From a virus (Duplodnaviria; Caudoviricetes), in IMG/VR virus record IMGVR_UViG_3300031857_000259, positions 1 to 53,332 of that record: 53,332 nt of DNA, one strand, 5' to 3'. The position numbers and the translations under genes are program-made. The notes beneath the pieces are model-generated. The model saw nothing but the letters and a program-made list of their open reading frames with translations. It had not been told where the DNA came from and ran no database searches. Positions 8,139 to 47,256 of the stretch are shown one piece after another (positions within the stretch are counted from its first letter, which is position 1; each line of letters opens with the position of its first letter).

Positions 8139-11100
8139 ATGACGAATATCACAAGAAACTTCATAGCTGGGAGAATGAATAAAGTCGTTGATGAACGACT
8201 CATTCCTGATGGAGAGTATATCGATGCGCTTAATATTCGCATGGGATCTACAGAGAACTCTGAGATTGGTGTCATTGAAAATACTAAGGGTAACAGCAGG
8301 CTGACTACAATTAAGTATGTTGATGGTACACCGCTTAGTTCCTCAGCTAGATGTATTGGTACTATAGCCGATAATACAAGTGAGACTATCTATTGGTTTA
8401 TTCATGACTCCAACTTTGGTGTTGGTGCTACTGGTAAGCTTGATATGATTGTATCGTTCAATGTGTACAACAACATATTGACATACCACGTGATTAGCAT
8501 CAACGATGGAGATGGTGATAATACCACTCTAAACTTTAACCCAGGATATCTTATCACAGGGATAAATATTATTGATGACTTGATATTTTTCACGGATGAT
8601 TACAATCCGCCAAGGTTCATAAACAGATTAAAGAACTACCCTGATCCTGTGGGTAACATAGACCAGTTTAGTGCTGAGTCTATTCTTGTTATTAAGAGAC
8701 CACCGGTAGAGTCTCCTGGTGTTACATTAATCAACACAGGGAATCAAAATGACTTCCTAGAGAACAGGTATATATGCTTTGCGTATCGATACCTATATGA
8801 GGATGGAGAATACTCTGCTACATCTCAGTGGTCTGCTCCTGCGTTTCAGCCTAAGCCGTTTGACTTTAGCATTAACAGCTACCTGAATGAGGGTATGCAG
8901 AACCAGTTTAATGCAGCTAGAGTAACTTACAATACAGGCGGACCGCTTGTGGTTGGCATTGACTTGCTATTTAAGGACACCACTAGCAATGTAATTAAGG
9001 TTATTGAGAAGCTTAACAAGGCAGACCTTGGACTAGCGGACAACCTTAACCGTACATACACATTTACAAATAGTAAGATATTTACCATCCTTCCTGAAAG
9101 TGAGCTGCTAAGATTGTACGACAACGTACCATTGCTTGCTAAGGCACAGACCATCATGGGTAACAGACTCATGTATGGTAACTATGTTGAGGGGTACGAC
9201 ATGATAGATGTCAATGGTAATCCTATTAACTTAGAGTATTCTGTTGATTTGATATCAGAGGAGATTGGAACTACTGAGGTAACAGATTCGCTTGGCTCAG
9301 GGACCTATAATTTTGGCCCTCCTCAAACGATTCCAGGAGCGGTGGTATACTTAGACCTTTCGCCATTTGAACTTGTCACAGGGGCCTCTATTACAGCCGA
9401 TATAACATTTGAGCATGAAGGGTTTGCTGGAGATACTCCGTTCCCTTCAGAAACAACAGATAGCACGTCTATCAACTTCTCATTTGTTTTGCCTAGATCA
9501 TATGCTTCAGTGTATGAGTTGGCAACAAGTGTTGAGTTTCAAGATGCGATAGGCATATCATCAAACATAGAGCCTGTAGTTGACTCTTGTAATGGCACTA
9601 CATTTACGGATCAGTTTAACTGCTCACTGCTACAGAACTTAGATGCATTGGATAAATACCAAAGCGGTATCAGTGCTGCTGGTCAGGGGATTGGTATTAT
9701 AACATCTCCAGCTAGTCAATCAATTGGTCTTCAGTTGCTTGCAATGAGGTATGTTGATGATACTACTACGCCTACATTTAGCGTGTATGAGTACTATCAG
9801 TATAATGCTGTTAATGCATTCTATCAAAAGATTAACTCTCCGAGAAGCTTACATAGCAACAGAGGGTATGAGATTGGGATTGTTTACATGGATGACTTTA
9901 ACAGATCAACAACTGCTTTAGTTAGTCCAAACAATACGGTTCATGTACCATGCTCAGCATCGGATACTAAGAACTCTATTCAAGTAACTATACCACCAAC
10001 ACAGAAGGTGCCTTATTGGGCAACACGATATAAGTTTGTGATTAAGCCTGATGAGGAAAACTACGATACAATATATAGCAGCATATTCTTTAATGATCCG
10101 CTGACTAATAACGTGTTCTTCTTGCTTGAGGGCGAGAATGCTAGGAAGGTTCAGCAGGGTGATAGATTGATTGTGAAGGCTGATACTAATGGACCTACAC
10201 AAAATTGCGTGTATACTACTGTGCTTGAGAAAGAATCTCAGGTAGAGGGGTTTATTGAGATTCCAAGTGAGCTAGATCCAAGCGTAAATATTCCTGTACC
10301 TGCTGGTGTATACATAAAGATTCTTCCAAATAACTTCTCTGTAGTTAAGGAGCAGGACGATATTATTGCTCCAGGTACTATTCAAGTAGATGAGAATAAC
10401 GGTGGGGATTATCCAATCCTAAAGTATCCAATGAATGTCTATAATGGCACTACTTGGGTTGATTATACTGTACCTGCTGGTAGTAGAATAAAGATAAACC
10501 TGAAGTTCCAAAGACTTGGTGTTGGTAAGGGTAATGGAGATTGCGAGACAAGAATCTATACCCTAGAGAAGACCATGATTGCATCAGCGGACTATGACAA
10601 CATGGTGTCTTGGTTTGAGGGAGACAATGTTCAAGTAGTTCTCAATGAGGGTGTTCAAGATGTAGGTGGAGATGGATGCGAGATTGATAATGAATACATT
10701 ACTGGAGTCTATGATTATCCTCCAGGATCAGCAACAGATGCTATTTCTGATCCTGCAACATGTACCAACAAGTATCGATTTGCTAGAAACACAACGACAA
10801 ATGAGTTGTCACTAGTTATATCTGGTACTGTTCGTTGTACAGGAACTCTTGCAAGAGAGAAGAGAAGGTCTACTATCATTGCTACCTTTGAAGTATTCAG
10901 AGCTGACAGCATAATTATATTTGAGACTGAGCCATCTGATGCTTTGCCTGATGTATTCTTTGAGAATGACTTGTCTCTCCCAATTGTAAATGGATACCAC
11001 GGAGGGAATGTTCAGACTCAGACAGCATTACTACCAGCAATAATTGACACTAATTTCTTCAACTGCTTTGCATTCGGTAACGGAGCGGAGAGCTATAAGA

Positions 11101-12545
11101 TTCTTGACTCAATTATTGGTAGGACACTTACCTTTGGTAACAGAGTAACTGCTGTAGCTGCTCAGGACTACAGAAGAATCAGAAGATTTGCAGACATTAC
11201 TTATAGTGGTGTCTATAACTTTGAGTCTAATGTAAATAAGCTGAACGAGTTTAATCTTGGTCTACTTAACTTCAAGTATCTTGAGGTAGCATTTGGTCCT
11301 ATCTTCATACTAGATGGACGTGAGACAGATGTGCTTGTGCTACAGGAGGATAAGATATCTTATGTGCTTGCTAGTAAGAATTTGATTTCTGACTCAGCAG
11401 GTGGAGGAGCTATCTCATCAGTGCCTGAGATACTAGGTACACAGATTGCTAGAACAGAAGAGTTTGGTATTAGCTTTCATCCAGAGAGTTATGTTCAGTG
11501 GGGATACGATAGATTCTTTACTGATGTAAAGCGTGGTGCAGTACTTCAATTGAGAGGGAATGACCTTGCTGTAATATCTGAGATGGGCATGAGGACTTGG
11601 TTTAGAGATGAGTTTATTGAGTCATTCAACACTCAGAAGCTTGGTGGATTTGATCCGTATCTAAATGAGTATGTTCTAAGTACTAACTCTCAAGAGTTGC
11701 CTAGACCATTAGATTGTTTATCATGTGGTATTGGTCAGACATTTACTATCCCAAGTGGTGATACATTTACTTATTGCGTTGACTTAGGTCAGCCAATTGG
11801 TGTTGTTAATATACCATATAGTGTTTCACCTTCTTCTACTGCTGAGTTTACTATATCGGTAACTTACGATGGAGCTACTGAAACTTCTGGTCTTGTAGAT
11901 GAGTCAGGGTCATTGCAGTTTGATAAGGACAAGAATAATGTTAACGTAGCCACAGTTACAATAACAGCAGCAGATCCTCTTGAGATAACTGTAACACCTA
12001 GATGTCCTGTAGAAGAGACACTTACAATTGTTAATGTAACATTGACTAGCGTGGTTGATGCAGGCAAGTTTATCCATAATCAGTACAGATATACTGATGG
12101 AACATTTGTATCACCATTGCAGTCTACTCTTGTTACATTTGCTACAAATGATTCAAGTCCAGTGGTATCTCAATACGATACAATAAATGGGCCAGAGGGA
12201 AGTTCTGGTATACCAACGGGAGGATCTACCTTACAGATTATATCGAATAAGATTGATTTTGATACATTTGATTTTGTATTAGGTCAAGATAAGTTTAGAT
12301 ATTTGCGTAGTAATACCTTATATCCAAATACTTCTGTAGGTATTTCAAACTTACTTGCAGCATCTTCATTGGTTTCACCAATAACAGGTAGTGCAGGATT
12401 ATTCTCAGGTTCATTTACTGTGCCTAGCAGTGGTGATTATCTTTATCTAATTTGGGATTACAGAAATTCATTGCCTGTAACTCTTTGTTATTCTAATACA
12501 ACTACTCAAGACGCATGCTGCGGCTGCGAAGAAGAACCAAGTTAA
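8139..12545 (+). CDS. Tail nozzle/muzzle ('stabilisation') protein, N-terminal part with insertion domains
   Basis: 1468 aa. Starts NFIAGRMNKVVDERLIPDGEYIDALNIR and contains FAYRY, GNRLMYGNY and FGISFHPES, motifs of crAss-like/P22 gp10-like beta-propeller nozzles. Confidence 0.7.
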   Translation: MTNITRNFIAGRMNKVVDERLIPDGEYIDALNIRMGSTENSEIGVIENTKGNSRLTTIKYVDGTPLSSSARCIGTIADNTSETIYWFIHDSNFGVGATGKLDMIVSFNVYNNILTYHVISINDGDGDNTTLNFNPGYLITGINIIDDLIFFTDDYNPPRFINRLKNYPDPVGNIDQFSAESILVIKRPPVESPGVTLINTGNQNDFLENRYICFAYRYLYEDGEYSATSQWSAPAFQPKPFDFSINSYLNEGMQNQFNAARVTYNTGGPLVVGIDLLFKDTTSNVIKVIEKLNKADLGLADNLNRTYTFTNSKIFTILPESELLRLYDNVPLLAKAQTIMGNRLMYGNYVEGYDMIDVNGNPINLEYSVDLISEEIGTTEVTDSLGSGTYNFGPPQTIPGAVVYLDLSPFELVTGASITADITFEHEGFAGDTPFPSETTDSTSINFSFVLPRSYASVYELATSVEFQDAIGISSNIEPVVDSCNGTTFTDQFNCSLLQNLDALDKYQSGISAAGQGIGIITSPASQSIGLQLLAMRYVDDTTTPTFSVYEYYQYNAVNAFYQKINSPRSLHSNRGYEIGIVYMDDFNRSTTALVSPNNTVHVPCSASDTKNSIQVTIPPTQKVPYWATRYKFVIKPDEENYDTIYSSIFFNDPLTNNVFFLLEGENARKVQQGDRLIVKADTNGPTQNCVYTTVLEKESQVEGFIEIPSELDPSVNIPVPAGVYIKILPNNFSVVKEQDDIIAPGTIQVDENNGGDYPILKYPMNVYNGTTWVDYTVPAGSRIKINLKFQRLGVGKGNGDCETRIYTLEKTMIASADYDNMVSWFEGDNVQVVLNEGVQDVGGDGCEIDNEYITGVYDYPPGSATDAISDPATCTNKYRFARNTTTNELSLVISGTVRCTGTLAREKRRSTIIATFEVFRADSIIIFETEPSDALPDVFFENDLSLPIVNGYHGGNVQTQTALLPAIIDTNFFNCFAFGNGAESYKILDSIIGRTLTFGNRVTAVAAQDYRRIRRFADITYSGVYNFESNVNKLNEFNLGLLNFKYLEVAFGPIFILDGRETDVLVLQEDKISYVLASKNLISDSAGGGAISSVPEILGTQIARTEEFGISFHPESYVQWGYDRFFTDVKRGAVLQLRGNDLAVISEMGMRTWFRDEFIESFNTQKLGGFDPYLNEYVLSTNSQELPRPLDCLSCGIGQTFTIPSGDTFTYCVDLGQPIGVVNIPYSVSPSSTAEFTISVTYDGATETSGLVDESGSLQFDKDKNNVNVATVTITAADPLEITVTPRCPVEETLTIVNVTLTSVVDAGKFIHNQYRYTDGTFVSPLQSTLVTFATNDSSPVVSQYDTINGPEGSSGIPTGGSTLQIISNKIDFDTFDFVLGQDKFRYLRSNTLYPNTSVGISNLLAASSLVSPITGSAGLFSGSFTVPSSGDYLYLIWDYRNSLPVTLCYSNTTTQDACCGCEEEPS

Positions 12546-12546
12546 T

Positions 12547-13467
12547 ATGGCAACATCATCAACATACTATTTAGATGCCCCATCACTTAGCAGTGCTACC
12601 GTGGTATACTCAAATGCTGCGCTAACTACAGTCGCTGCAAATGGGTTCTACTCTGATGGAGCTATAGTAAGAGAGCAAGTATCAGGAGTGCTATTGCCTC
12701 AGCAAACTTGCCCTTCTTGTGCTGTCCCTTGTGGTGGTACAATAAGCGAAAGTGGAAGTCAGGGCATATATTATCTTAATACTGATTTAGGTACAGATAT
12801 TGGAGCAGTAATTATTGAGTTTGATCCTCAAAGTGTTCCAGATGGAATATTAGCAGTGTACGATAGTATTGCATATAATGGATTATCTTCACCTTCTTTT
12901 GGGTGGCTTCAAGGTACACCAAGCCTACCTACTTATATAGGATCTTCATCTAGTCCTTGTAGTAGTACAATTGTTTCTGGCTCACCATATAATTTAAATG
13001 AATTTCAATATGATGGGTCTTCATTTGTTCCATTAGGAACTGCAATTAGTGTAACTGTAACTTCGGGTCAAATGGCGTTGACTGGTTCAGGGCCTGGTAA
13101 TTGTGTGATGGTTATACCAAAGACAACTGCATCTCCATCTATTATAAACCTAACATTTATTGGTCCATGCACAGGAACTGTATTTGATGTTTCAGTATCA
13201 TGTCCAGCTGCGTTGACATCATTTGCATCTAGCACTATTAATGCAAGTAGTGCATTAGCTTGTGCTGATACTATTGACCAAACATACTACGTGGCTCACG
13301 TTACTGGGTCTGGGGGTAATTTAAGTTTGTATGATTTAGTTTTTAGTGACCCTAATGGTGAGTTTAAACTTGGTGCAGGTTACTATAAGACTAATGATGC
13401 AGGCTTATATGAGTGGTATCAAGTGGATTCCAATGGCGTAATTATTTTATTCGGATTTTGTCCTTAA
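12547..13467 (+). CDS. Ser/Thr/Cys-rich beta-structured virion protein (putative nozzle-associated or adhesin)
   Basis: 306 aa, S/T/G-rich with several Cys and almost no basic residues; lies inside the tail operon. Confidence 0.5.
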   Translation: MATSSTYYLDAPSLSSATVVYSNAALTTVAANGFYSDGAIVREQVSGVLLPQQTCPSCAVPCGGTISESGSQGIYYLNTDLGTDIGAVIIEFDPQSVPDGILAVYDSIAYNGLSSPSFGWLQGTPSLPTYIGSSSSPCSSTIVSGSPYNLNEFQYDGSSFVPLGTAISVTVTSGQMALTGSGPGNCVMVIPKTTASPSIINLTFIGPCTGTVFDVSVSCPAALTSFASSTINASSALACADTIDQTYYVAHVTGSGGNLSLYDLVFSDPNGEFKLGAGYYKTNDAGLYEWYQVDSNGVIILFGFCP

Positions 13468-13472
13468 TAACT

Positions 13473-14279
13473 ATGGCAAACTATACACTATCATATAGCG
13501 AATCGGCCCAGGGGTGGCCATCATTCTACTCCTTCATTCCTGACTACATGATTGGGATGAACAACTACTTCTATACATTTAAGGGAGGGAACTTGTATCG
13601 TCACAATGTGAATGAGACCAGGAATAACTTCTATGGAACTCAGTATAACTCTAGGCTTCAGAGCGTATTCAACGTATCCCCTCTTGAGAATAAGATATTT
13701 AAGACTCTTAATTTAGAGGGTAATCAAAGCTGGGCAACGCTGATGGAGACAGACATTCAAACCTCAGGCTTCATTGAGTCTGCTTGGTATGAGAAGAAGG
13801 AGGCATCATGGTTTGCATTTGTACGTAACGCAGGTACGGTACCAGCACAGCCATCAGAGTATGCGCTTAGATCAGTGAATGGCATTGGCTTAAGTCAGAA
13901 CATAGTAGGAGGCGCATCATCACTACAGGTATTGTTTCCTATAGCTCCTGACTTGACTGAGATTGGAAGCATCGTAAGTGTAGGGGACTACCTATACTAC
14001 AGCCTACCTCCTAGCTACAGCACACCGGTGTTATGTGGTCAGATTACAAGCATTGTGGTAGACTATTTAACAGGGAACAACAAGATAGTTGTAAATGCAT
14101 TAATCGCTGGGGGTAGTATACCTCCAATAACTGACCCGTTCTTTATGTATATTAAGGGGTCCGTAGCTGAGTCTCATGGTGTACTAGGACATTATTGTAT
14201 ATTTACACTAGAGAACAACAGCACTACTAAGGTTGAGCTATTTGCAGTTGAGTCTGAAGTAATGAAAAGTTATCCTTAA
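13473..14279 (+). CDS. Tail nozzle C-terminal-like protein (start revised to ATG 13473)
   Basis: MANYTLSYSESAQGWPSFYSFIP...KIFKTLNLEG...KVELFAVES resembles the C-terminal blades of the nozzle family. Confidence 0.6.
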   Translation: MANYTLSYSESAQGWPSFYSFIPDYMIGMNNYFYTFKGGNLYRHNVNETRNNFYGTQYNSRLQSVFNVSPLENKIFKTLNLEGNQSWATLMETDIQTSGFIESAWYEKKEASWFAFVRNAGTVPAQPSEYALRSVNGIGLSQNIVGGASSLQVLFPIAPDLTEIGSIVSVGDYLYYSLPPSYSTPVLCGQITSIVVDYLTGNNKIVVNALIAGGSIPPITDPFFMYIKGSVAESHGVLGHYCIFTLENNSTTKVELFAVESEVMKSYP

Positions 14280-17132: not shown

Positions 17133-20100
17133 ATGGAAGAGCAATTACTAAAAGAATACGTTGGCACCTATCTTAATCCTAAGTACAACGGTGATTGGGA
17201 TGTAGTTAATTCAAAGTTCCCTGAATTGTCTGGAGTTGATAAGGAGATTTTAAAAGAATATGTTGGGACCTATCTCAACCCTAAATATAATGGAGACTGG
17301 AATGTAGTAAACTCGAAGTTCCCTGAGTTATTCCCAGCAGGTAAATCTTCTGCTGAAAGACCTGTAGCACAGAAACCTTCCGAGCCAGTAAAAAAAAAAG
17401 ATACGGTATCACCATTTGTGGATGGTGGTTCGGAGCTTACAAAGTTTGACCCACGTACTGGTCAGGTTGTACAGGATACCCCTGAGTTTGCCACAGCTAA
17501 GCCTGAGGTAAAGGTCCCGGAGCAGAAGCTACCAGCACGTACTGAGTTTCAGTTCCAGCCAGGAAAGCCATTGCCTGAACAGAAGACAGCACCACTTCCT
17601 AAGTTTGTTGAGGAGCAGTTATCTGCTGTTAAGCCAGAACTTATAGGTAAGACTGAAGAGAATGTTGTACCACAACTTAAGTATCAGTTCGGTCCACTAG
17701 GATTTAAGTTCGAGGAGACTAGAGCTGGAGATTACATGATGGCTACATCTCCATCTGGAGAGTCCATTTATATTTCTTTAGACGTTGTAGACAACAAGGA
17801 AAGGGAGGCTGAAGCCAATAAGCTAAATGCATTTTTAAGAAAGGGTGCCACTACTGTAAAGAACTTATCTACTTTACAGAAGCAGTATACAGACGCTAAT
17901 AAAAAGATTGTATCTCAGAAGGAACTTGATGAGTCTCTAGCAAGCATCAATGCAGAGGAGACAAAAATCTTGGCAAGAAACGCTGAGTTTGTTAAGGCCC
18001 AGAATAAACTAGAGGCAGAGAAAGCACAACTAGAAAGTGTTCCTGTACAGCAAAGAAATAATCCAGCTTACATTGCTAGAGTAAATGACTTTATATCAAG
18101 AGCGGATCAGTTTAGCACAGACTTTCAAGCATTTGCAAAAGATACTGAGGACTTATCAAAGAGAAGTCAGCAATTAAATAAGTCTATAGGAAAGTACACT
18201 GAGATGAAAGCTCAGCAAGGGACTTGGTATGGTGCTGGTTTAAATGCCTTTGCTAACAAGTATATTTATGAAGAGGCCAAAGGGCAGGTTGGTGTAGCTA
18301 TTGATTTTATAGGGGAGATAATTTCACTTACTGGATTACCAATAATGAGTCCAGAAAACTATGAGAAAAACTTCATTGAGCAAGCCAAGAAAGAAGGCAT
18401 AAATGTTACTGAAGGTGAAGACTTTATATCATTGGCTAATAAGCTTGATCCTAAAACCCTTGCTAAGATAGAGAATAGAGTTATAGATGCAGGAAAGAAA
18501 AGTGTAAAGGGAGAGATTATAGGTGGTTTAGATAAGGCTTCTAAGACGATTATGGAATCATCAGGGGTTTCTGCTGATTACTACAGGTCGATTGAAGAGA
18601 CACTTGTCGGAGGGGCCTTGCTTGGCACATTATCATCTATACCAGCTATGGCAGGTGGACCATTAATAAGAACAGTATTGATGGGGACTCAAGTGCTATC
18701 AGGTATAGATGCTGAGATGGCTAACGACCCTGAGTTTGCAGACGTATCAGAGAATGAGAAGTACCTTGTTAAGGGTCCTATTGCAGTAGCTGTTGGTGTA
18801 CTAGAAAGCCTTGGCTTAAGTAACTTACTAAACCAGAAAGGCTTCTTGAATGGCTTAGTTCTTAAGGCTCTAGGCAAGGTAGGTAAAGGTGCTAGTTATA
18901 AAACATTCGGTGAAGTAATTAAGAACGAGATTGATAGTGCTGTAGGAAGAGGAGCATTAACTCTAGGAGCTGGCTTCCTAGCTGAGGCTGAGACAGGTGC
19001 GTTACAGGAAGTAGCTACTATTGGCATCAAAGAAATTTATAACATGGCTAAGGAGAAGGAGATGTTTGATACTCCTGATTCTGTAGTTCAGTTTATTGAG
19101 CAGGTTGGTAAGGCTAGTTTACAGGAAGGTATTGGGGCTGGTGTATTAAGTATACCTGGATCTGTATCTGCCGCCTATACTGGCAAGGGATTCTTAGGTA
19201 TGGATGATTCTCAGTTTGCTATGTTTGAAAAGATGGCGAACGACTCAAACATTCAGAAGGGATTCGTTGCTAGACTTAAGACTAGAATTAATAATGGTGA
19301 GATTACTGCTGCTGAAGGAAAAGACATACTTAATAATTACAGAAATTCTGTAGGCTTATTCAACTCATTACCTGAGAACCTTGACATGCAAGGTAAGAAG
19401 GAGGCTATGAACTTGCTTAAGGAGAAGCGTGACTTGGAACGTCAGATTGAGGGCAAGGATCAAGCATTGACAGTACCTCAGCGTAATAGAGTAAACGAAA
19501 TTAATAATCAACTAACTAAACTATCAGAAGATGCCATTCAAAAGCAAGCAGCAGGTGAAGTACCTGTACAGCCAGGAGCCACAGTTAGCGAAGAAGTGGC
19601 GCAAGGAGAACCCCAAGCAGAACCTCAAGGCGTTAGCCAAGAAGGTCAAGAAAAAATAAATGACATTGAAAGCAGAAGACAGGAGGAGCTCAGTGCTTAC
19701 GATGAAGAAGGACTTAATGAAGCTTATTCAGTAGGTAGCGATCAAACTGTAGGTGAGTTTATAAATGCCAAGTATGACACAGAACTAGCTGCATTAGAAC
19801 AACCTACTCAGGAGCTAGACTTAGATGGAGAGGTATCCTTACTTGAGCAGTTACTTGCACAGGAGGAGACTGCACCTACTGTATCCGCTGGTATATCAAT
19901 CTCAAGTGATACTGATGTTGAGGAGTTGAGAAATAGAACTCAGTCAAGATCTCAGCAGGCAACAACACCAGAAGATAAGGAGTCTGCAAATACAAGAGTT
20001 AAGATTATTGATACAGCTAAGAAGGCTATTAATACATTGAAGTCTATCTTACCTAATTTTGATATTGTAATACATGAAGATGAGGGTAGCTACAATGCTG

Positions 20101-23100
20101 CCATGTCAGAAGTAAGTGGGGTAGCAGGATCTAGAGGAAACTTCTTTAGTGATACAACTCCTGATGGAAATACGACAGGAAGGATTGATATCAACCTTTC
20201 TAAGGCAAACTCTAGAACAGTAGCTCATGAGATTGCTCATGGTATACTAATAAATACATTTGGAGACAATGCAAACTTGTTCAATGATTTTAGAACAAGA
20301 CTATCTAAGGTACTTAAGGCAGATGCAAACAAGCAGCTAAATGATTTTGCTGATAGGTATGTAGACCCTAATACGGGAGAGCTTCTAGATGTAAACCACG
20401 AGGAGTTCTTGGCTGAGTTAACCGGTATGTTAGAGCAGCAGGAAACCAATGTATCTGTAAGTACAATGCAGAAGGTTGCTGCGTTAATTAATGAGTTTAT
20501 ATCTAAGATTACAGGTGGTAAGTTCAAACCTTTTGAGGATACTAAGAACACCAAGGATGTAGTCGACTTCTTCAATACCATATCTGAGTCTATCCGCAAA
20601 GGAGAAGATATAGAACTAAATGGTGGAGGTGAGGTAGGTACATTTAACTTTATTTCAAGAAGCAGTTTAGATGTAAAAGAAGCTCCTAGTGTAGCGAATG
20701 ATAATAGGTCTTTCATCAGAGATTTAGTCGAGGATATCGACATGATAGATTTTAATGGAAGAAAGTTTGTCACCAATATGTATGACTACACTACTGCTGG
20801 GATTGCTGACTTGGGAAATGGTCTTAGTATAAATATGATGGGTGGCAAAAACTATGTGCCATACATGATGTCTTTACAGGACAAGAAAATAGGAGACGTT
20901 TCTAATCTAGCCGCATTCAATACCAAGGCACAAGCAGAATCCTTCGCACGTAATGCAATAAAAGGGGACGCATCCTTGTTTGCACCACACTCAGGTACAC
21001 TATCTGAGTCTTGGCAGTTTCAGCAGCACACGTTTGCAGAACTTGTGAACTTGGTTATAGATAAAAATATAATGAGTGATGCTGAATTGATTGATGTATT
21101 TAATAAAACAATTAATTCAAAGGCTAATAAAAAAGCTTTCAATGCATTTAAAAACAAGTATGGGAAAGACATCTCTAATTTTGATTCGTTTAAGGATGAC
21201 CCTAAAAAAATAGTAGAGTTATTAGATATTAAAAATAATTATTCTCCAAACTTAAGGAAGGCTCTCAACAATGCTATATCAGCAGACAAGACTTTCCAAA
21301 AGGCCATAGGTATAAAAAACAAAGAAGAGTTTTTTAAAAGAATAATGGACCCTCTTAATGATGGTGTAAAGGGAGGAGAGATAATTAACGTGGTTGAATT
21401 TGATCCTAAAACATTTCAAATAGTTCAAACAAAAGCAGGTGCTATAGACCATCACCCTTCATTTGGGTGGTCTATTCTATCCAAAATAAATGGGATATAT
21501 CAGCCTACTAAATTTTACCAATCAAGTAATGTAACTGATAGTTATGTTAAGTATAATAAGTCAGGCGAGCAGGTATCAAGAAAGGCTGAAGAAAGTAACT
21601 TTGAGAAGAAGAATGTATCATCAAGCGCAGGTTCAATTCCAAAAGTTGCAGAATTTAATGAGCCTTCAGACGTAGATACTCCAAGCTCAAAGCGTATATC
21701 AAGATCTCAAATAAATGACGCACTATCAAAGGCATCTGGATCAACACAAGTTGCAACTACAAAGGGCAGTTATAGAAAGGCTGCAAATATTTTAAAGAAT
21801 ATTGGTGTAGATGGTGATGTCCTAGACTATGGAGCAGGGCTTGGATTAGGGACTGATGCCATGAGTGAGGTCCTTGATAAGCCTGTTGATTCATTAGAAA
21901 TTAATCCAGAAAGATGGAAGGGAATTAGGCCAGTAAAATATACTGATGCCAATCAAATAGATAAGAAGTATGATGGAATAGTATCCTTGAATGTAGTGAA
22001 TGTAGTTCCAAAAGAAGTAAGGGACTTCATTGTTCTTGACATATTTAATAATCTTAAGGAAGGTGGAACTGCTATTATAAGTTCAAGAGGATTTAAAGGA
22101 GACATTGATGGTGCTAAAAACTTTGTCGATGGAGGTGAAGAAAAAAGCTACATAATAAAAAAGAGAGAGAAGGGCAAATTTATTTATGTATTCCAAAAGG
22201 GATATGATGGTAATGAGTTGTTTGAATATGTTAAAGGCTTATTAGGAGACTCTGCTGAAGTAGTATCTAACAATACATTTGGTAAAAGAGGAGTTGTAAT
22301 AACTAAACTTAGCAATGTAAAAAGCAGATCTCAATTACCTGGCAATGATGCACAGAGAATAGTTAATCTAGGACGTGCTAATGGTTTGTCTGATCAAGCG
22401 ATATCAAACGTATTGGAGAAGCGTGGCTTCACTCAAGAAGCCATTGACACTGCATTAGGTAAGGAAGCAAAGGCTGCCAAGAAGGTTGAGGTAACTGAGG
22501 AGTTTGCTCCTGGGTATAACAGAGTACTCAATAACATGTTCGGTGAAAAGGGTGTAGTAGCCAAGTCACGCAGACGTGGTGTATCTAAGGAAGATACAAT
22601 TAAAAATGCTATTAACTACTTACAGGGCACTAAGGTATATGAGAACGCTACTGATGTACAGCGTGAGGCTATGGTCCGCAATGTAAACAAGGAGCTTGAG
22701 AAGCGTGAGAAGCGTGCTCCTAGTGCTAAGAAGGTATTGGGCCAGAAGAAAGACGTTGTAACAATCACCGTTGATTTAGCTAAGGAAAGAGATAGAATCA
22801 TTAAGGAACAGATAAAACTAGCAAAGGAAGTTACTGGTGACCTTAACGAGAAGAGAGCAGCATTAGCTGATGCCATACGTATGTTTGAAGATGGAGGAGT
22901 TATAACGACTGCTCAAACTAAGACCATAGTAAATAGAATTAGTAAGGTCAATCTAAATAATCCTATCATGGTAGATAGGTTGCTTGCATACATTGAGAAA
23001 GTATTCGACAATGCAAACTATGCTGCTGACATGGATGAGCTAAGAAAGCTACAGCGTCAGGCTAGGTCTAGAAACCATACCTCAATGACTAACGTAGTCA

Positions 23101-26100
23101 AACAGTTCACGTCTATCAACCCTGAGAACATCCCACTAGATAGAATACAAGACTATAAGAAAGCACTTGACTTCTTAAACAACCTAACCCCATTCTATGG
23201 GGAGATGAATGATGTGCTTGATGAGATGTTGTCCTATCAGGTATCTGAAGAGTTCGATGCTATCAAAACATTAGAGGCTCTTGAGAAGAAGTATGAAAGT
23301 ATACAGCTTAATGAAGTAGGCAGTGTAGAAGAGTACAGGAATTTAATAAAAGACATCAACTCCTTTAAGAGAAAAGCATTCCAGTTACTACAGAACGAAG
23401 CTATTAATCAGAAGGATTATGATGACCTAATCAATATGGTTGGTAAGGATCAAGCTGAGTTAGAGAAGAGATATAAAGAAGAAATCACTCATATAAAGAA
23501 GGACTTCATTGCTGAGATAAAGAATCAGCGACCAAAGGTAAGCAGAGACTTTAGTAATGTAGAAAACGATTTGATTCGTAAGTACCTAGAGCTTAGCGAT
23601 GCTGACCTTGAGAGTCTATCTCCTGAGGAGCTATTCATCTTGAATGATTTGCTAGAGAACATTAGCAATGGGGAGATTGATGTATCTAGATTTGCGCCTA
23701 TTGTTTCAAAAGCTTATACAAGTAGTGGGCTTGATCCACTCGCTAAACAAATTAACAAATCTAAGTTTAACAAGAACTCAGAGGAAGGTAGACAAGAACT
23801 TGCTGAACAAGAGAGCTCATTCTGGGAAGGTCTTCTTGGCATGGGTCGTGCTAAGGTTGGGGCACTACAGAAGTTAATTATATCTCCATTCAATAGGGCT
23901 ATTTCATCTTTTGAGAAGTTTAACAGAGAGGGATACAATGAATTCTTAAAGCTTAAGAATAAGTATAAGATTGATAAGTTTGATCTATTAAAGAATTCTA
24001 AGGATATGCATAAGATAGGGATGCTAACCACATACCTACAGGAGTACATGGCTCAGTTTGATTCCAAGAATAAGGACGTTAAGGATATAGGCAAACGGGA
24101 TTGGTTTAAGGAGATACTTAACAGCAGGGCAATGAGAGATAACTACTCATCTGGTAAACCATCTGTATTCAAATCAATTGGATTAGGTAAGTCTGAATTA
24201 GATATCATTAAGGAAATCTGGGATAGCCTACCAAAAGATAAGGATGGTAATGTAGATCCTAAGGCGGTATATGATAGCTACATGGCTAACGATGGTAAGT
24301 TCTTTACCAAAAATCAGAAAGCATTCTTTGATGATGTGATGGCATACAAGGCATCTGAAATTACACCAAAACAAAAGTTTGCTAATGAGCTTAGTGGTGC
24401 TTCATTCAAGGAGATTCCATTCCATATGATGAGAGTTAGACTTGACAAAGGTAAAAGTCAGATTGCACCAACCTCATCTTCAGAGAATAATAACGTGAGG
24501 ATAACTGCTGGTACTGGTAAAGAGAGGGTAAGCGAAAATGTGGGGGCTGTTATGACTAACTTTGAGAAGCTATTTATATCAGGTATAGAGCAGACTGGGC
24601 GTGATTATTTCTTATCTAATGCACTACAAGATATCAACAACACTATTTCAGGTGTAAAGAAAATAGTTGGTGATAGTAAAATAGAGTTGATTAACACCAT
24701 ATCGTATACATTATCTGACGCATTAAAATTTGAGTTTGATAGAACTAAGAGCAACTTTATATTTAGGAACTTGTTGTCAGCGAGGGCAGCTCAGACATTG
24801 TTAAGACCTATTAGGACTGCTGTTGAACTTGGGTCAACACTTGTATCTTATCCGGTTCGAGCTAAAACTTTATCAGGATACAAGTCATTGTTCGGTGAAC
24901 AAGGGTCTATGAAAAAACTTCTTGAGTTTACAGATAGCCCTATGTTGCTTAGAGATAATATTAGTAAGGCTATTGATATTAACGATGGAAGTATTGAACC
25001 ACAGAGTAGATTTACTAAGGCCACTAACTACCTATCTGGTCTGCCTGAAAGGACAATGATGGTGACCTCATGGATGCCAACATTCAAGTCAGAATTTAAG
25101 ACCATTACTGGTATAGACTTTGACATTAATAAGTTTAATAATAGCGAAGCATACAGAGAGAAGTATGGTAAGGCTATTAGGGAATCATCAGCAGCGGCAG
25201 ATGCTCAGACTGAGAAGATTATTGGACCAACTACCAAAGCAGGACAAAGACGTGAGGTTAGAATAGCCCCAAGGTTCTTAGCTAATCTTGTTGGATCTGA
25301 AGGTACTGTATCAAAGAACACCGCAACCGGACAGATCTTAGGATTCTTCAGTAACTATCCATTCAGGGAGTCAACAGAATTTCTAAATGGATTTAGAGAA
25401 GCAGCAGAGGTGTTGAATGATGAAGGTGCCTTGAGTTCATTGAGTCAATTACAAAAGCCCCTAGGGGTGGCTTTGAACGTGGCTGCTTATAGCTTCCTTT
25501 CATCTGCAACATATGCATTAGGATTAATACTTCTTGGAGATGATGAAGATGAGAAGAGAGGTGAAGACCTTTTAAAAGCTTTATTAACAGGAGAGGGATT
25601 ATTAGAAGAGTTAAAATCAAATGCTATATCCCTTGCAGGAAGTCAGTATGCGGCTGGAGGAAAGGCCATAATTCAATTAGCGGTTACCATATTAATTGAA
25701 TCTACAGATGACGAGAAGCTAAAGGCTAAATATAAAAAGCTACTTAAGGATAGTGTATTCATTGATCCACTACCGGTAGATAAGGTGGTAGGATTTAAGG
25801 GAGAGCAGGAGGTAGCTGGTGCAATAGGAAAATATATCCCTCCGTTTATAGTCGCATACGCTAGGTATGCTGACTTAATCGGAACTAAAAACGAGCTCAA
25901 ATATATATACGATAAGGTAGAAAGTAAAGGTGTCGAGAGCTTAACAGAAGATGAAGGTCTTAAGATACTTGCTTTGAATACATTATTCAATGGTACTCAA
26001 ATAGTACTAAACCTATACGGAACATCCCTACCTGAATACAACAACATCAAGACTTACATGAAGAAACTTAAGGGAGAGGCAGGAGTAGCTGAAGTATACA

Positions 26101-26315
26101 AGGGAGAAGCACCTGCCAAGAAGAAGTCATCTGGTGGAAGTGGCGGTGGCAGAACTAAGACCATCAACAAGTCTGACCTTAAGAGGTACTACCCTGGTCT
26201 TAGCAAGCAATTAGAGTCTGCTACGTATGAAGTAGAGCAGGAAGTAAAAGCATTCGAGAAGGAGCAGAGAGAGTTTAAAAAGAAGATGAAGGACCAGTTA
26301 TATGGTGGGGACTAA
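17133..26315 (+). CDS. Giant polyvalent internal virion/ejection protein with zincin metallopeptidase and class I SAM methyltransferase domains
   Basis: 3060 aa, last gene of the structural operon. It has hydrophobic G/A-rich segments, HEIAH (aa 1032-1036) with a downstream EEFLAE, and VLDYGAGLG (aa 1563-1571) with YDGIVSLNVVNVV. Confidence 0.75.
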   Translation: MEEQLLKEYVGTYLNPKYNGDWDVVNSKFPELSGVDKEILKEYVGTYLNPKYNGDWNVVNSKFPELFPAGKSSAERPVAQKPSEPVKKKDTVSPFVDGGSELTKFDPRTGQVVQDTPEFATAKPEVKVPEQKLPARTEFQFQPGKPLPEQKTAPLPKFVEEQLSAVKPELIGKTEENVVPQLKYQFGPLGFKFEETRAGDYMMATSPSGESIYISLDVVDNKEREAEANKLNAFLRKGATTVKNLSTLQKQYTDANKKIVSQKELDESLASINAEETKILARNAEFVKAQNKLEAEKAQLESVPVQQRNNPAYIARVNDFISRADQFSTDFQAFAKDTEDLSKRSQQLNKSIGKYTEMKAQQGTWYGAGLNAFANKYIYEEAKGQVGVAIDFIGEIISLTGLPIMSPENYEKNFIEQAKKEGINVTEGEDFISLANKLDPKTLAKIENRVIDAGKKSVKGEIIGGLDKASKTIMESSGVSADYYRSIEETLVGGALLGTLSSIPAMAGGPLIRTVLMGTQVLSGIDAEMANDPEFADVSENEKYLVKGPIAVAVGVLESLGLSNLLNQKGFLNGLVLKALGKVGKGASYKTFGEVIKNEIDSAVGRGALTLGAGFLAEAETGALQEVATIGIKEIYNMAKEKEMFDTPDSVVQFIEQVGKASLQEGIGAGVLSIPGSVSAAYTGKGFLGMDDSQFAMFEKMANDSNIQKGFVARLKTRINNGEITAAEGKDILNNYRNSVGLFNSLPENLDMQGKKEAMNLLKEKRDLERQIEGKDQALTVPQRNRVNEINNQLTKLSEDAIQKQAAGEVPVQPGATVSEEVAQGEPQAEPQGVSQEGQEKINDIESRRQEELSAYDEEGLNEAYSVGSDQTVGEFINAKYDTELAALEQPTQELDLDGEVSLLEQLLAQEETAPTVSAGISISSDTDVEELRNRTQSRSQQATTPEDKESANTRVKIIDTAKKAINTLKSILPNFDIVIHEDEGSYNAAMSEVSGVAGSRGNFFSDTTPDGNTTGRIDINLSKANSRTVAHEIAHGILINTFGDNANLFNDFRTRLSKVLKADANKQLNDFADRYVDPNTGELLDVNHEEFLAELTGMLEQQETNVSVSTMQKVAALINEFISKITGGKFKPFEDTKNTKDVVDFFNTISESIRKGEDIELNGGGEVGTFNFISRSSLDVKEAPSVANDNRSFIRDLVEDIDMIDFNGRKFVTNMYDYTTAGIADLGNGLSINMMGGKNYVPYMMSLQDKKIGDVSNLAAFNTKAQAESFARNAIKGDASLFAPHSGTLSESWQFQQHTFAELVNLVIDKNIMSDAELIDVFNKTINSKANKKAFNAFKNKYGKDISNFDSFKDDPKKIVELLDIKNNYSPNLRKALNNAISADKTFQKAIGIKNKEEFFKRIMDPLNDGVKGGEIINVVEFDPKTFQIVQTKAGAIDHHPSFGWSILSKINGIYQPTKFYQSSNVTDSYVKYNKSGEQVSRKAEESNFEKKNVSSSAGSIPKVAEFNEPSDVDTPSSKRISRSQINDALSKASGSTQVATTKGSYRKAANILKNIGVDGDVLDYGAGLGLGTDAMSEVLDKPVDSLEINPERWKGIRPVKYTDANQIDKKYDGIVSLNVVNVVPKEVRDFIVLDIFNNLKEGGTAIISSRGFKGDIDGAKNFVDGGEEKSYIIKKREKGKFIYVFQKGYDGNELFEYVKGLLGDSAEVVSNNTFGKRGVVITKLSNVKSRSQLPGNDAQRIVNLGRANGLSDQAISNVLEKRGFTQEAIDTALGKEAKAAKKVEVTEEFAPGYNRVLNNMFGEKGVVAKSRRRGVSKEDTIKNAINYLQGTKVYENATDVQREAMVRNVNKELEKREKRAPSAKKVLGQKKDVVTITVDLAKERDRIIKEQIKLAKEVTGDLNEKRAALADAIRMFEDGGVITTAQTKTIVNRISKVNLNNPIMVDRLLAYIEKVFDNANYAADMDELRKLQRQARSRNHTSMTNVVKQFTSINPENIPLDRIQDYKKALDFLNNLTPFYGEMNDVLDEMLSYQVSEEFDAIKTLEALEKKYESIQLNEVGSVEEYRNLIKDINSFKRKAFQLLQNEAINQKDYDDLINMVGKDQAELEKRYKEEITHIKKDFIAEIKNQRPKVSRDFSNVENDLIRKYLELSDADLESLSPEELFILNDLLENISNGEIDVSRFAPIVSKAYTSSGLDPLAKQINKSKFNKNSEEGRQELAEQESSFWEGLLGMGRAKVGALQKLIISPFNRAISSFEKFNREGYNEFLKLKNKYKIDKFDLLKNSKDMHKIGMLTTYLQEYMAQFDSKNKDVKDIGKRDWFKEILNSRAMRDNYSSGKPSVFKSIGLGKSELDIIKEIWDSLPKDKDGNVDPKAVYDSYMANDGKFFTKNQKAFFDDVMAYKASEITPKQKFANELSGASFKEIPFHMMRVRLDKGKSQIAPTSSSENNNVRITAGTGKERVSENVGAVMTNFEKLFISGIEQTGRDYFLSNALQDINNTISGVKKIVGDSKIELINTISYTLSDALKFEFDRTKSNFIFRNLLSARAAQTLLRPIRTAVELGSTLVSYPVRAKTLSGYKSLFGEQGSMKKLLEFTDSPMLLRDNISKAIDINDGSIEPQSRFTKATNYLSGLPERTMMVTSWMPTFKSEFKTITGIDFDINKFNNSEAYREKYGKAIRESSAAADAQTEKIIGPTTKAGQRREVRIAPRFLANLVGSEGTVSKNTATGQILGFFSNYPFRESTEFLNGFREAAEVLNDEGALSSLSQLQKPLGVALNVAAYSFLSSATYALGLILLGDDEDEKRGEDLLKALLTGEGLLEELKSNAISLAGSQYAAGGKAIIQLAVTILIESTDDEKLKAKYKKLLKDSVFIDPLPVDKVVGFKGEQEVAGAIGKYIPPFIVAYARYADLIGTKNELKYIYDKVESKGVESLTEDEGLKILALNTLFNGTQIVLNLYGTSLPEYNNIKTYMKKLKGEAGVAEVYKGEAPAKKKSSGGSGGGRTKTINKSDLKRYYPGLSKQLESATYEVEQEVKAFEKEQREFKKKMKDQLYGGD
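17148..17330 (+). repeat. Intragenic tandem repeat, 2 x 27 aa at a 34-aa period
   Basis: LKEYVGTYLNPKYNGDW[D/N]VVNSKFPEL at 17148-17228 and 17250-17330. Confidence 0.95.
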
Positions 26316-35534: not shown

Positions 35535-35752
35535 AGTTGAATTGTTATAGTGTCGCTGAAATTTGATAAGGTAATTCTCTTTGGATATGCATCCTCCAAT
35601 GCTACGATGTAGTCCTCGATGAAATAGTTCATCTCCTCATGTCGCTTAGCCATTGGTTCTAATACCTTTCTGAGTTGCTCCTCAGTTATAGTGGTGTATA
35701 AAGTACACTGGTCACCATCCCAGTTGCCGATTTTTAATTTGAATACATTCAT
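35531..35752 (-). CDS. Hypothetical early protein, paralogue of 37194-37418
   Basis: Shares T..[TN]E.Q..KV.EP...R..E and AL.DAYP with 37194-37418. Confidence 0.6.
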   Translation of the reverse strand: MNVFKLKIGNWDGDQCTLYTTITEEQLRKVLEPMAKRHEEMNYFIEDYIVALEDAYPKRITLSNFSDTITIQL

Positions 35753-36099
35753 AGTTCTACTTTAAGACTTAAGTTATATTGTTCAAGAAGATTTTTTATT
35801 TCAATCAATCCAATCTTCCCAAAATTTCTTAATTTCATTAGTTCTTTTTCTGTGTACATAGTTAAGTCCTCTAGTGTTTTTATCCTTGCAAAATAAAAAC
35901 AATTATATGTTCTTACAGATAAATTAAGTTCACCTATAGGAGTTTTAAGCAAGTCATTCCTTTCAAAAAATTCCTTTCTCATTTTAGTATTCCCATTGAA
36001 TAGCATAATATGTATTACCCTATCAGCTATTCTATCAACCAATGTATCGATATCAATCGATGTGAATACTAGATTTTCAGTTCCGTTTTTTTCTTTCAT
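35749..36099 (-). CDS. Stand-alone RNA polymerase alpha-subunit C-terminal domain (alpha-CTD) protein
   Basis: LLKTPIGELNLSVRTYNC...IKTLEDL...EKELMKLRNFGK.GL.EI..LL matches RNA_pol_A_CTD; no alpha-NTD is present. Confidence 0.85.
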   Translation of the reverse strand: MKEKNGTENLVFTSIDIDTLVDRIADRVIHIMLFNGNTKMRKEFFERNDLLKTPIGELNLSVRTYNCFYFARIKTLEDLTMYTEKELMKLRNFGKIGLIEIKNLLEQYNLSLKVEL

Positions 36100-42776: not shown

Positions 42777-44390
42777 ATGGAATACTCACCTAAAGATTTA
42801 GTGTTCGCCCAGGAGGGCAGGCTAAAGTTAATTTCTGGCATCAAGAAGATTGCTGGAGCGGTCAAGAGTACGTTGGGACCTTACGGTAACACGGTGCTTA
42901 TTGAGAGTCCTAACCACACGCATGGTATTACGGTAACTAAGGATGGTGTAACTGTCGCTAAGTCGGTTGACCTGATTGATCCTGTTGAGAACCTTGCGGT
43001 TAAGATGATGAAGGAGGCTGCGGATAGAACGGCTACCTCTGCTGGTGATGGCACGACTACTGCCATAGTGTTGACTGAGGGTTTGGTGCTTGGATGGTTA
43101 GAGCACATTGGTGCAGGCCAGACAGAGCTCAATACCACTGAGGTGCTGCGCAACATATCTGAGCTAAGTTCAAAAGTGATTGAGGGGTTGAAGAAGAAGG
43201 GCAAGAAGGTGACTAACTCAATGCTGCTTGACGTGGCAACAATCTCTGCGAACAATGACAGCCAGATCGGTCGCATTATTGCTGAGGTGTACAAGGAGGT
43301 CGGCAAGACTGGGATTGTAACGGTGGAGCGTAGCCAGACAAATGAGACCTATGCTGAGACCACTAAGGGTCTAAAGATTGACAGGGGGTATACAAGCCCA
43401 TTGTTCATCAACGATCAGAGCAGAGACGAGTGCGTATTTGAGGACGTGCATGTGCTGGTGGCTGACATTGAGATAAGTAACATCTTGCAGATTGAGAACA
43501 TTCTAAAGCCAATCATTACTGATGGGAAGAAGCTACTCATTGTATCGCCATGCCATGTGAACGTTGTGAATACATTGGCTGCAAATGTTATGAAGAACAA
43601 CCTAAAGATCTGCGTGGTACAACCACCTAGCTTTGGGTATCGACAGCATGAGCTGATGCAGGACCTGGCGGTGAGTGTAGGAGCGACATACTTCAGTGAG
43701 AAGACCGGAGATGACCTGAGTCAAATTACTATTGAGGACCTGGGGCATGCAGCCAGAGTAGTGGTTAGCAATGACAAGACCATCATTCTTAAGTCAGACT
43801 TGAGAATAGACCCAGTCAAGGTAGAGGAGCGAGTAGCTCAGCTATGGCAGTCACATAAGATTGCTAAGAGGAAGGCTGACAAGGACCACCTATTAGATCG
43901 GATTGCTTCGCTTACAGGTGGCATTGGTGTGATATACGTAGGTGGACAGACTGACCTAGAGCAGAAGGAGCTGTACGACCGTGTTGACGATGCGGTGTGT
44001 GCTGTGCGTAGTGCACTAGAGGAGGGCATCCTTCCAGGTGCCGGCAAGGCATTGCTAGATGAGACAGCTACTCTCATTCCAACTGGTAGCTTCCACTACA
44101 GCCCTGAGATGAGTGTGGCGATTAAAATCCTATCCAATGCGATGATGGCACCGTTCCAACAAATCCTTGCAAACGCTGGCCTAAAGCCTAGTGACGTGTA
44201 CAAGGATGGGGCTGAGATTGGTCATGGGTACAACCTAAAGACCGGGCAGATGGGTGACCTGATTAAGATGGGGGTGATTGACCCACTGAAGGTGACACGT
44301 ACTGCGTTGCAGAACGCTGTGAGTGTAGCGACAACTATTCTGAGCACTAACGCCATCATTACGATGGCTAGATCATACGAGACTAAGTAA
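42777..44390 (+). CDS. groEL: Phage-encoded group I chaperonin GroEL
   Basis: TLGPYG, TKDGVTVAK, AGDGTTTA, TISANND, DRGY, GGIGVIYVG and GVIDPLKVTRTALQNAVSVA; no GGM tail. Confidence 0.95.
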   Translation: MEYSPKDLVFAQEGRLKLISGIKKIAGAVKSTLGPYGNTVLIESPNHTHGITVTKDGVTVAKSVDLIDPVENLAVKMMKEAADRTATSAGDGTTTAIVLTEGLVLGWLEHIGAGQTELNTTEVLRNISELSSKVIEGLKKKGKKVTNSMLLDVATISANNDSQIGRIIAEVYKEVGKTGIVTVERSQTNETYAETTKGLKIDRGYTSPLFINDQSRDECVFEDVHVLVADIEISNILQIENILKPIITDGKKLLIVSPCHVNVVNTLAANVMKNNLKICVVQPPSFGYRQHELMQDLAVSVGATYFSEKTGDDLSQITIEDLGHAARVVVSNDKTIILKSDLRIDPVKVEERVAQLWQSHKIAKRKADKDHLLDRIASLTGGIGVIYVGGQTDLEQKELYDRVDDAVCAVRSALEEGILPGAGKALLDETATLIPTGSFHYSPEMSVAIKILSNAMMAPFQQILANAGLKPSDVYKDGAEIGHGYNLKTGQMGDLIKMGVIDPLKVTRTALQNAVSVATTILSTNAIITMARSYETK

Positions 44391-46998: not shown

Positions 46999-47256
46999 AT
47001 GAAGGCGATAGGCAAAAACATTGTAATCAAATCTATTGACGAGGAAGTTAAGACTTCTTCAGGATTAATTCTATCTGGTGAGGATACAAACCAATTACGC
47101 TACAAGCGTGGAGTAGTAATCAACTCAGGCACAGACGTTCATAACATTAAGGCTGGGGATGAGGTGTACTACGACAAGGCGAATAGCTATGTGATGATCA
47201 TCAATGATGAGCACTGCGTAATTATTCAGGAACGTGACGTAGTTCTTGTCCTGTAA
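46999..47256 (+). CDS. groES: Phage-encoded co-chaperonin GroES
   Basis: Mobile loop EEVKTSSGLIL, G.V...G, IKAGDEVYY and IIQERDV; 85 aa. Confidence 0.85.
   Translation: MKAIGKNIVIKSIDEEVKTSSGLILSGEDTNQLRYKRGVVINSGTDVHNIKAGDEVYYDKANSYVMIINDEHCVIIQERDVVLVL

Follow-up and report, generated by a model that had tools for sequence, protein, structure and literature searches.

A conserved junction motif bounds exchangeable modules in giant zincin-bearing phage proteins and is a candidate processing site

Polyvalent proteins are described in the main text of PMC5512222 as giant multi-domain proteins of mobile elements that have an HExxH zincin as a hub, carry variable conflict-type modules, and are predicted to be delivered with the DNA. 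The same main text, its supplements aside, proposes that embedded zincins autoprocess these proteins and draws the analogy with RNA-virus polyproteins, defines no cleavage site or junction motif, and does not mention PUA, ASCH, or YTH domains. A second close comparison is the cargo of phage crAss001, gp45 and gp46, which in the parts of PMC10172136 that concern them are encoded just after the muzzle gene, have a predicted transmembrane (TM) segment, and are presumed to be stored and then ejected. We analyzed a 53,332-nucleotide (nt) contig of a marine phage (IMG/VR record IMGVR_UViG_3300031857_000259; hereafter the window) whose giant open reading frame (ORF), P0001, at 17133..26315 on the plus strand, encodes a polyvalent virion/cargo-type protein of 3060 amino acids (aa). 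Four copies of a short motif, SRS[Q/S], stand at the domain junctions of this protein, and in its relatives the same places separate modules that are gained, lost, and replaced.

As in polyvalent proteins, unrelated units share one chain, here a zincin, a PUA-like domain, and an S-adenosylmethionine (SAM)-dependent methyltransferase; the variable conflict-type modules have counterparts in the ART-PolyVal, GNAT, ParB, methyltransferase, and LPD domains of relatives. A difference is that no Pfam LPD family matched the window protein at E ≤ 1, whereas LPD23 was found in relatives P0010, P0021, P0043, P0078, and P0120. As with gp45 and gp46, the giant ORF lies downstream of the genes for the portal, virion proteins, and crAss-type muzzle, and TM-like hydrophobic segments are present at aa 386-404 and 545-566 in the N-terminal region and at aa 2783-2801 in the C-terminal region. 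It differs from these two proteins in being far larger and in having enzymatic modules, and no sequence similarity to them was found. The giant protein is probably packaged in the virion and ejected with the DNA; the indications are indirect, namely the place of its gene in the structural module and the annotation of distant homologs.

The initial annotation had located four copies of the motif, and all of its coordinates were right. J1 is SRSQ (SRSQQ, in the context NRTQSRSQQA) at aa 938-941 (19944..19955), J2 is SRSS (SRSSL), a Gln-to-Ser variant, at aa 1175-1178 (20655..20666), J3 is SRSQ (SRSQI) at aa 1523-1526 (21699..21710), and J4 is SRSQ (SRSQL) at aa 1731-1734 (22323..22334), all on the plus strand. 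These are the only SRS tripeptides in the ORF. From composition 0.63 SRS are expected, and four or more arose in 0.38% of 5000 shuffles of the protein; for SRS[QS] the expectation was 0.07 and none of the shuffles reached four. This test was picked post hoc, after the motif had been noticed, and repeated 4-mers are common: some 4-mer recurred at least three times in 86% of 1000 shuffles, and the real protein has six such 4-mers. Judged from this one protein alone, the repeat is at most suggestive; because the within-protein count does not go beyond post hoc chance, the case rests on the position of the motifs and on the relatives. Two further candidate sites are not claimed, namely KRSQQ at aa 343, which is KRGQQ in most relatives, and GKSQI at aa 2441-2445 (24453-24467 of the window), which has no constant basic residue. 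The latter is part of an x-S/T-Q-I-[A/T]-P element kept in the C-terminal region of close relatives, which may be one more site of the junction type or a motif unrelated to the others.

The motifs were compared with domain boundaries in two AlphaFold models. That of aa 925-1540, built from a 28-row alignment, had a mean predicted local distance difference test (pLDDT) score of 81 and contained two folded units split by a disordered stretch; that of aa 1500-1830 (pLDDT 78) contained a class I SAM methyltransferase followed by a small helical domain. A weak strand was modeled at aa 1520-1526. In the first model J2 is at the end of a stretch with pLDDT below 50 (model residues 239-254), and in the second J3 comes just after the disordered residues 1-21 and J4 is inside a segment with pLDDT below 50 (residues 230-237). 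The expectation that motifs and predicted boundaries coincide was thus borne out for J2, J3, and J4, which lie in or beside low-confidence linkers, but not for J1, which is predicted to be helical.

A search with aa 900-1780 returned 294 proteins of 1683-5355 aa, of which 120 were retrieved, giving a family set of 121 proteins. Within the close clade the motif is retained at all four places, with changing flanks. When the 63 proteins with at least two S[KR][SA]Q (the 58 others were left out) were cut at [SFK][KR][SA][QS] followed by L, I, V, K, or Q, the resulting 260 segments clustered into modules of fixed length. The zincin module is 237-250 aa long, and the slot after it holds one of three alternative modules (341-375, 412-417, and 341 aa). 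The following slot is empty or holds a methyltransferase (207-213 aa, 21 proteins), LPD23 plus a zincin (301-336 aa), leucine-rich repeats (LRR; 664-729 aa), or other modules, after which comes the C-terminal part. The close clade alone displays at least seven different module arrangements. Relatives carry ART, GNAT, LRR, ParB, or second-zincin modules, and the Pfam domains of 14 of them (ART-PolyVal, LRR_5, LPD23 plus SprT-like, ParB_N, and methyltransferase) fall between consecutive motifs. The motifs are therefore genuine module boundaries, and their conservation at the junctions of homologs, which the initial annotation had left to be checked by alignment, is clear.

Hybrid junctions show how closely gains, losses, and replacements map to the motifs. 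In P0086-89 the methyltransferase is missing, and the junction SKVV-SRSQ-LPGNDA fuses what lies left of J3 to what lies right of J4; NFV-SRSQ-INDAL is found in P0016 and P0018, and GTFV-SRSQ-L in P0084, P0091, P0093, and P0099. In P0010 a different module, which carries LPD23 and a second zincin, comes after KRI-SRSQ-II. BLASTP segments have 398 internal endpoints, and 131 of them are no more than 15 aa away from a motif site; together the four sites cover 4.4% of the protein. Ten high-scoring segment pairs begin exactly at aa 1731 (J4). The correspondence is thus exact to the residue at J3 and J4 but not at J2, where homology with relatives stops at aa 1161, 14 residues before the motif. Pairs of motifs 15-18 aa apart, with no module between them, were seen in P0024-26, P0030, P0015, and P0120. 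The spacers of two of these relatives are alike (VSTEVKDMGKQFTI in P0024, VASEVKEMEDTFTV in P0030), and such pairs have the appearance of a slot left empty or of a conserved "junction box."

The motif is enriched across the family and loosens with distance. S[KR]SQ was seen 129 times against 9.6 expected across the 121 proteins and is present in 57 of them, with six copies in one 4577-aa relative. J1 is invariantly SRSQ in the close clade and of the AKKQV/EKQV type in more distant relatives; J2 counterparts include KRSSL, FRSQL, SKSQI, and RKLQK. In distant clades SKAQ, RKKQL, RKQI, KIKAQK, KIKFQK, RRSQ, and QRQQK occupy the same places instead of SRSQ or SKSQ, so that the constant core is a basic residue, one variable residue, and Gln, usually with L, I, V, or K next. 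At J3 the −2 position was basic and Gln was present in 27 of 28 diverse sequences each, where the neighboring columns are mostly gaps; at J4 the −2 position was basic in all 22 sequences and Gln was present in 20. Even in clades with less than 50% identity, where the flanks cannot be aligned, the basic residue and Gln are retained.

Two counts anchored on domain ends gave a similar picture. The end of the PUA-like domain is present in 144 of 176 proteins, giving 105 distinct tails, and 82 of these have [KR].Q[LIVKMQ] within 45 aa after the domain, compared to 10.5% of random windows from the same proteins. A zincin-only profile run against 1.84 billion proteins matched 1267 clusters (50% identity) with E ≤ 0.001, including 534 with E ≤ 1e-30, and nearly all of the 150 matches listed are 2000-3700 aa long. 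In an independent set of 144 new representatives clustered at 50% identity, the zincin match reached the profile end in 141. [KR].Q was found within 30 aa after the zincin in 87 of the 141 (15% of control windows) and R.Q in 67 (5.8% of control windows). A distant example is the 3694-aa homolog of Flavobacterium elemo phages, whose zincin is 29% identical and has AKKQV directly before it and SRFQA directly after it.

The zincin metallopeptidase domain occupies aa ~945-1161 (19965..20615, plus strand). Its HExxH motif, HEIAH, is at aa 1032-1036 (nt 20226-20240), which places the catalytic Glu at E1033, as the initial annotation had it, and an invariant Glu pair follows downstream. In a 38-sequence zincin alignment H91, E92, H95, and E150 were invariant. 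HExxH was present in 136 of 143 distinct zincin matches, and the seven without it are extra degenerate copies beside an intact one in the same protein. Such extra copies include those in P0115 and P0119 (aa ~1694-1799) and in P0059, P0065, and L052 (aa ~316-425); short family members that had been considered as stand-alone zincins turned out to be fragments. The best structural neighbors by VIA-align were PPEP-3 (9g0j; Z 7.0, root mean square deviation 3.7, 147 residues aligned), anthrax lethal factor (1yqy; Z 6.8), and 6fpc (Z 6.7). The top six rows were all of the lethal-factor, Certhrax, or PPEP type, at 11-16% identity, and so were the top four PDB representatives (Z 6.7-7.0, including PPEP-2). 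The modeled zincin thus appears to share its fold with lethal factor and PPEP, which implies neither membership of that family nor a toxin role.

Domain B, at aa 1179-1514 (20667..21674, plus strand), was modeled with pLDDT ~90 as a PUA-like (ASCH/YTH/EVE-like) beta-barrel with a helical insert. VIA-align with model residues 286-588 gave PH1033/ASCH (Z 6.2), YTH (4u8t; Z 5.9), and McrB-N (Z 5.1), with further ASCH and YTHDF neighbors at Z ~5 and EVE/THYN1 among those at Z 4.6-5.1. We take the PUA-like fold of the model as a lead and not as proof. Domain B had no sequence-family match in Pfam, PDB sequence, or NCBIfam scans, and the ESM Atlas gave no usable match for it or for an alternative module of the same slot. 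It is also the most conserved part of the family, with SWQFQQH, DHHPSFGW, and invariant columns.

The third module, at aa 1527-1726 (21711..22310, plus strand), is a class I SAM-dependent methyltransferase with the motif VLDYGAGLGLG, which contains the Gly-rich SAM loop DYGAGLGLG. Its matches to the PDB numbered at least 500 in Foldseek (E ≤ 0.001); 1y8c came first (E 3e-8), and GSMT and CypM were also among them. These neighbors are small-molecule and peptide N-methyltransferases, not DNA methyltransferases. Pfam Methyltransf_23 matched it at E 2e-4 with a score of 21.4, below the cutoff of 27, while relative P0119 scored 30.6, above the cutoff. The AT-richness that the initial annotation had noted by eye for the last two domains is modest but real (GC 0.351 for domain B and 0.346 for the methyltransferase, versus 0.388 for the gene). 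The third-position GC of the methyltransferase is 0.225, versus 0.333 for the whole gene, which would fit a module acquired more recently from a source richer in AT. The same methyltransferase module also turns up, at 33-39% identity, in unrelated marine podophages, within the large proteins gp54 of Pelagibacter phage HTVC104P and gp40 of Roseobacter phage CRP-738. Neither protein contains HExxH or S[KR]SQ, and HTVC104P has SKSG where this phage has SRSQ. The proposed reading of the three inter-motif segments as a zincin, a further folded domain, and a Rossmann methyltransferase thus held, the further domain now being PUA-like; the zincin and the PUA-like domain, though, belong to the conserved family core rather than to its variable effectors.

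We propose that the motif is a processing site for the zincin in cis, which would make the giant protein a phage "polyprotein"; this is the best supported of the readings, and on sequence and model evidence we consider it about as likely as not. In such a cargo, fixed N- and C-terminal parts, both probably membrane active, would flank a run of autonomous modules, namely the zincin, the PUA-like domain, and, optionally, an effector (for example, the methyltransferase). The junction motif [V/I/K]-S-[K/R]-[S/A]-Q-[L/I/K/V], or the looser [K/R]-x-Q, would be both the recognition and the cleavage site of the embedded, lethal-factor-like zincin, which would set the modules free from one another, either once the protein has been packaged or once it has been ejected into the host. 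Zincins have a P1' preference, and by analogy our guess for the scissile bond is the one after Gln and before the hydrophobic or Lys residue. We infer the cut at the motif, the cis zincin as its enzyme, the timing, and the scissile bond alike. Cleavage by the zincin in cis is plausible because no other candidate protease is seen on the contig, an M15 cell-wall peptidase aside, and because [KR]xQ tracks the zincin throughout the family. With the same site supplied or encountered by each module, exchange between phages would leave processing intact.

It is also important to point out several observations that weigh against this proposal. J1 is inside a predicted helix (pLDDT 71-82), and J2 has Ser instead of Gln in this phage. 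The loose core is missing from the 30 aa downstream of 54 of the 141 zincins, and the stricter [KR].Q[LIVKMQ] from 23 of the 105 PUA tails. Being a loose pattern, [KR]xQ is found within folded modules as well (for example, KAQA in the PUA-like domain and KRKQD in the methyltransferase). The fold matches of the zincin are middling (Z ≤ 7.0), and Foldseek with the zincin plus PUA-like model found no PDB match at E ≤ 0.001. The N4 virion RNA polymerase, which has a related zincin, is reported in the main text of PMC5512222 to be packaged unprocessed.

Besides cleavage, the initial annotation had suggested that the motif might be a DNA recombination junction for swapping cassettes, and a related alternative is that it is a functionless footprint of recombination, in which short DNA homology (TCAAGATCTCA) serves module swaps or the linker is simply inherited with the modules. 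Several observations agree with a footprint: the exact hybrid junctions at J3 and J4 (SKVV-SRSQ-LP without the methyltransferase, and NFV-SRSQ-IN), the Sak-type annealing protein and exonuclease that the phage encodes, and the sequence AGATCTCA, common to three copies (nt 19947, 21702, and 22326). AGATCTCA also occurs on the plus strand at 31123 and 47444. However, AGA (58% of Arg codons) and TCT (31% of Ser codons) are the commonest codons for these residues in the giant gene, so that AGATCTCA is the usual DNA form of SRSQ in this genome and simply follows from codon usage. At the junctions DNA repeats reach 11-12 nt at most, comparable to three exact but unrelated 11-nt repeats within this 2.7-kb region. 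Motif codons differ among copies and relatives (TCA, AGC, AGT, TCC, or TCT for Ser, AGA or AGG for Arg, AAG or AAA for Lys, and CAA or CAG for Gln); the basic residue may be either Arg or Lys, whereas Gln is retained. Swaps at J2 have their breakpoint ~14 aa before the motif, but the alternative linkers all come with a motif variant of their own (SRSSL, KRSSL, or FRSQL). Taken together, the synonymous variation, the Arg/Lys interchange, and the linker-specific J2 motifs argue that selection acts on the peptide, and the persistence of the basic residue and Gln amid unalignable flanks speaks against a footprint. A site-specific DNA recombination signal was rejected on the codon variation and on repeats no longer than chance ones, and we regard a functionless footprint as very unlikely. 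The 11-12 nt of identity may help the exact exchanges at J3 and J4; DNA of relatives with hybrid junctions came from only three loci in a metagenome scan and four in a second IMG/VR scan, which makes breakpoint mapping at the DNA level thin. Chance, in the sense of four meaningless SRS in a 3060-aa protein, would agree with how common repeated 4-mers are in the shuffles and in the real protein, but is refuted by the family data (the enrichment, the module cutting, the J3 and J4 columns, the PUA tails, the zincin set, and the BLASTP ends) and can be given next to no weight.

Two other alternatives accept the peptide motif and assign it differently. If it were a nonproteolytic linker element, such as a contact to the portal, tail channel, or DNA, or a hinge for threading, the protein would stay whole. 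This would suit a basic and polar motif, a helical J1, and the unprocessed N4 enzyme with the same kind of zincin; in addition, the parts of PMC10172136 on crAss001 describe gp45 as binding the portal and tail barrel via short segments and as thought to be extruded partly unfolded, and they do not mention proteolysis. It would leave unexplained, however, why a motif recurs at every module boundary, including the zincin C terminus family-wide, why "empty" pairs of motifs, spaced by 15-18 aa, have been retained, and why the zincin active site is universally intact, and we consider it unlikely. Alternatively, the motif might be cut by a host protease or by a phage protease encoded off the contig, with the zincin acting as an effector on host targets. 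The contig is incomplete, as it runs into open ORFs on both sides and shows no terminase, so a protease gene could be missing, and the main text of PMC5512222 allows that such zincins may themselves be effectors. On the other hand, no prohead-type or other protease family besides the M15 peptidase was found among the ~62 contig ORFs scanned, and [KR]xQ follows the C-terminal edge of the zincin across the 141 representatives. The strict motif was also absent from the 14 other virion ORFs tested, proteins of the kind a head protease would normally process, the sole loose match being RAQL in the portal; a head-maturation protease acting on all virion proteins was rejected on this absence and on that of a prohead-type protease among the ORFs scanned, and cutting by any other protease seems rather improbable to us.

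The remainder of the giant protein consists of its two terminal regions. The N-terminal region, aa 1-937 (17133..19943, plus strand), is kept in close relatives as cluster c1. Its aa 2-68 (17136-17336 of the window) are a tandem duplication with a unit of ~33 aa (…LLKEYVGTYLNPKYNGDW.VVNSKFPEL…), over which DUF3471 is a weak Pfam match. After J4 a small helical "RANGLSDQAI" domain (aa ~1738-1775) and then a conserved C-terminal region follow (22344..26315, plus strand). The giant protein had no PHROG family match, a megablast search of its gene against phage records gave no match, PDB sequence searches with aa 925-1736 and aa 1731-3060 gave nothing meaningful, and an NCBIfam scan gave only ArsM at E 0.004, far below the cutoff. 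No RNA polymerase family matched the giant protein, nor did the PDB sequence search of its C-terminal part return one; this is said of an incomplete contig. The top BFVD match was the homolog from Flavobacterium elemo phages (E 8.5e-17), and the distant homologs of those phages are annotated as "structural protein."

The virion module is of the Crassvirales type in its muzzle. A homolog of the crAss-type muzzle protein is encoded at 8139..12545 on the plus strand (Pfam crAss_MUZ, PF25731, 32.8 bits against a cutoff of 27), and crAss_MUZ_C (PF25729) matched the ORF at 13413-14279 with 66 bits. The N-terminal family and the C-terminal domain of the muzzle thus match two separate ORFs, with an ORF at 12547-13467 between them, and the muzzle may be split in this phage lineage. 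Genes on the opposite strand encode a helicase, a primase, the Sak annealing protein, and the exonuclease. The contig also encodes a GroEL/GroES pair along with the M15 cell-wall peptidase; GroEL (Cpn60, E 5e-59) is at 42777-44390 and GroES (Cpn10) at 46999-47256, both on the plus strand. A phage that makes a multi-domain protein of 3060 aa may depend on a chaperonin of its own. A small ORF at 35749-36099 on the minus strand matches the C-terminal domain of the bacterial RNA polymerase alpha subunit (PF03118, E 1e-18) and may be a transcription hijack factor.

The conserved junction motif is a new feature of a known kind of protein. Self-cutting of polyvalent proteins has been proposed since 2017, and a full-text literature search found nothing relevant on polyvalent cleavage, crAss-like MPTase, ejection-protein metallopeptidase processing, or SRSQ/SKSQ in bacteriophage; in the literature searched, neither a defined site nor a test of the idea turned up. 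What the motif adds are residue-level predictions of the cuts, of the fragments, and of the single mutations that would abolish them, and these cover a very large and mostly uncultured protein family. It also allows giant proteins to be parsed into modules from sequence, and thus the effectors injected by marine and other phages to be cataloged, and, if it is a processing site, would explain how modules are swapped freely with function retained. More tentatively, and with somewhat less than even confidence, we suggest a "junction code" in which a lethal-factor-like zincin reads a universal [K/R]-x-Gln at every module boundary of giant phage cargo proteins, which make up more than 1000 clusters. 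If this were true, any cassette placed between two signals would be packaged, ejected, and released, making these proteins plug-and-play arrays of injected effectors with a cleavage rule readable from sequence, comparable to MARTX toxins and RNA-virus polyproteins.

The nearest structural neighbors of the zincin, anthrax lethal factor and the Pro-Pro endopeptidases (M34-type), have in common with it HExxH and a downstream Glu. For the arrangement as a whole, other systems are closer. T4 internal proteins and Alt are encoded by separate genes and trimmed in trans by the prohead protease at a Glu-based consensus; they are packaged and injected effectors with a short consensus motif, as the giant protein would be, with packaging, injection, and processing putative here. 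RNA-virus polyproteins are cut at Gln-containing sites by 3C or 3C-like proteases, which are chymotrypsin-like Cys or Ser enzymes, and their modules are replication enzymes. Common to both are a short motif with a conserved Gln at the junctions and a protease in the same chain, whereas here the protease is a zincin, the virus a double-stranded DNA phage, and the modules accessory effectors. MARTX toxins are secreted bacterial arrays of effector domains released by a cysteine protease domain in cis. Like them, the giant phage proteins hold exchangeable effector modules in one giant chain with an embedded protease and, as predicted here, linker sites that obey a simple residue rule; they differ in having a zincin as protease, a phage particle as carrier, and cleavage that is putative.

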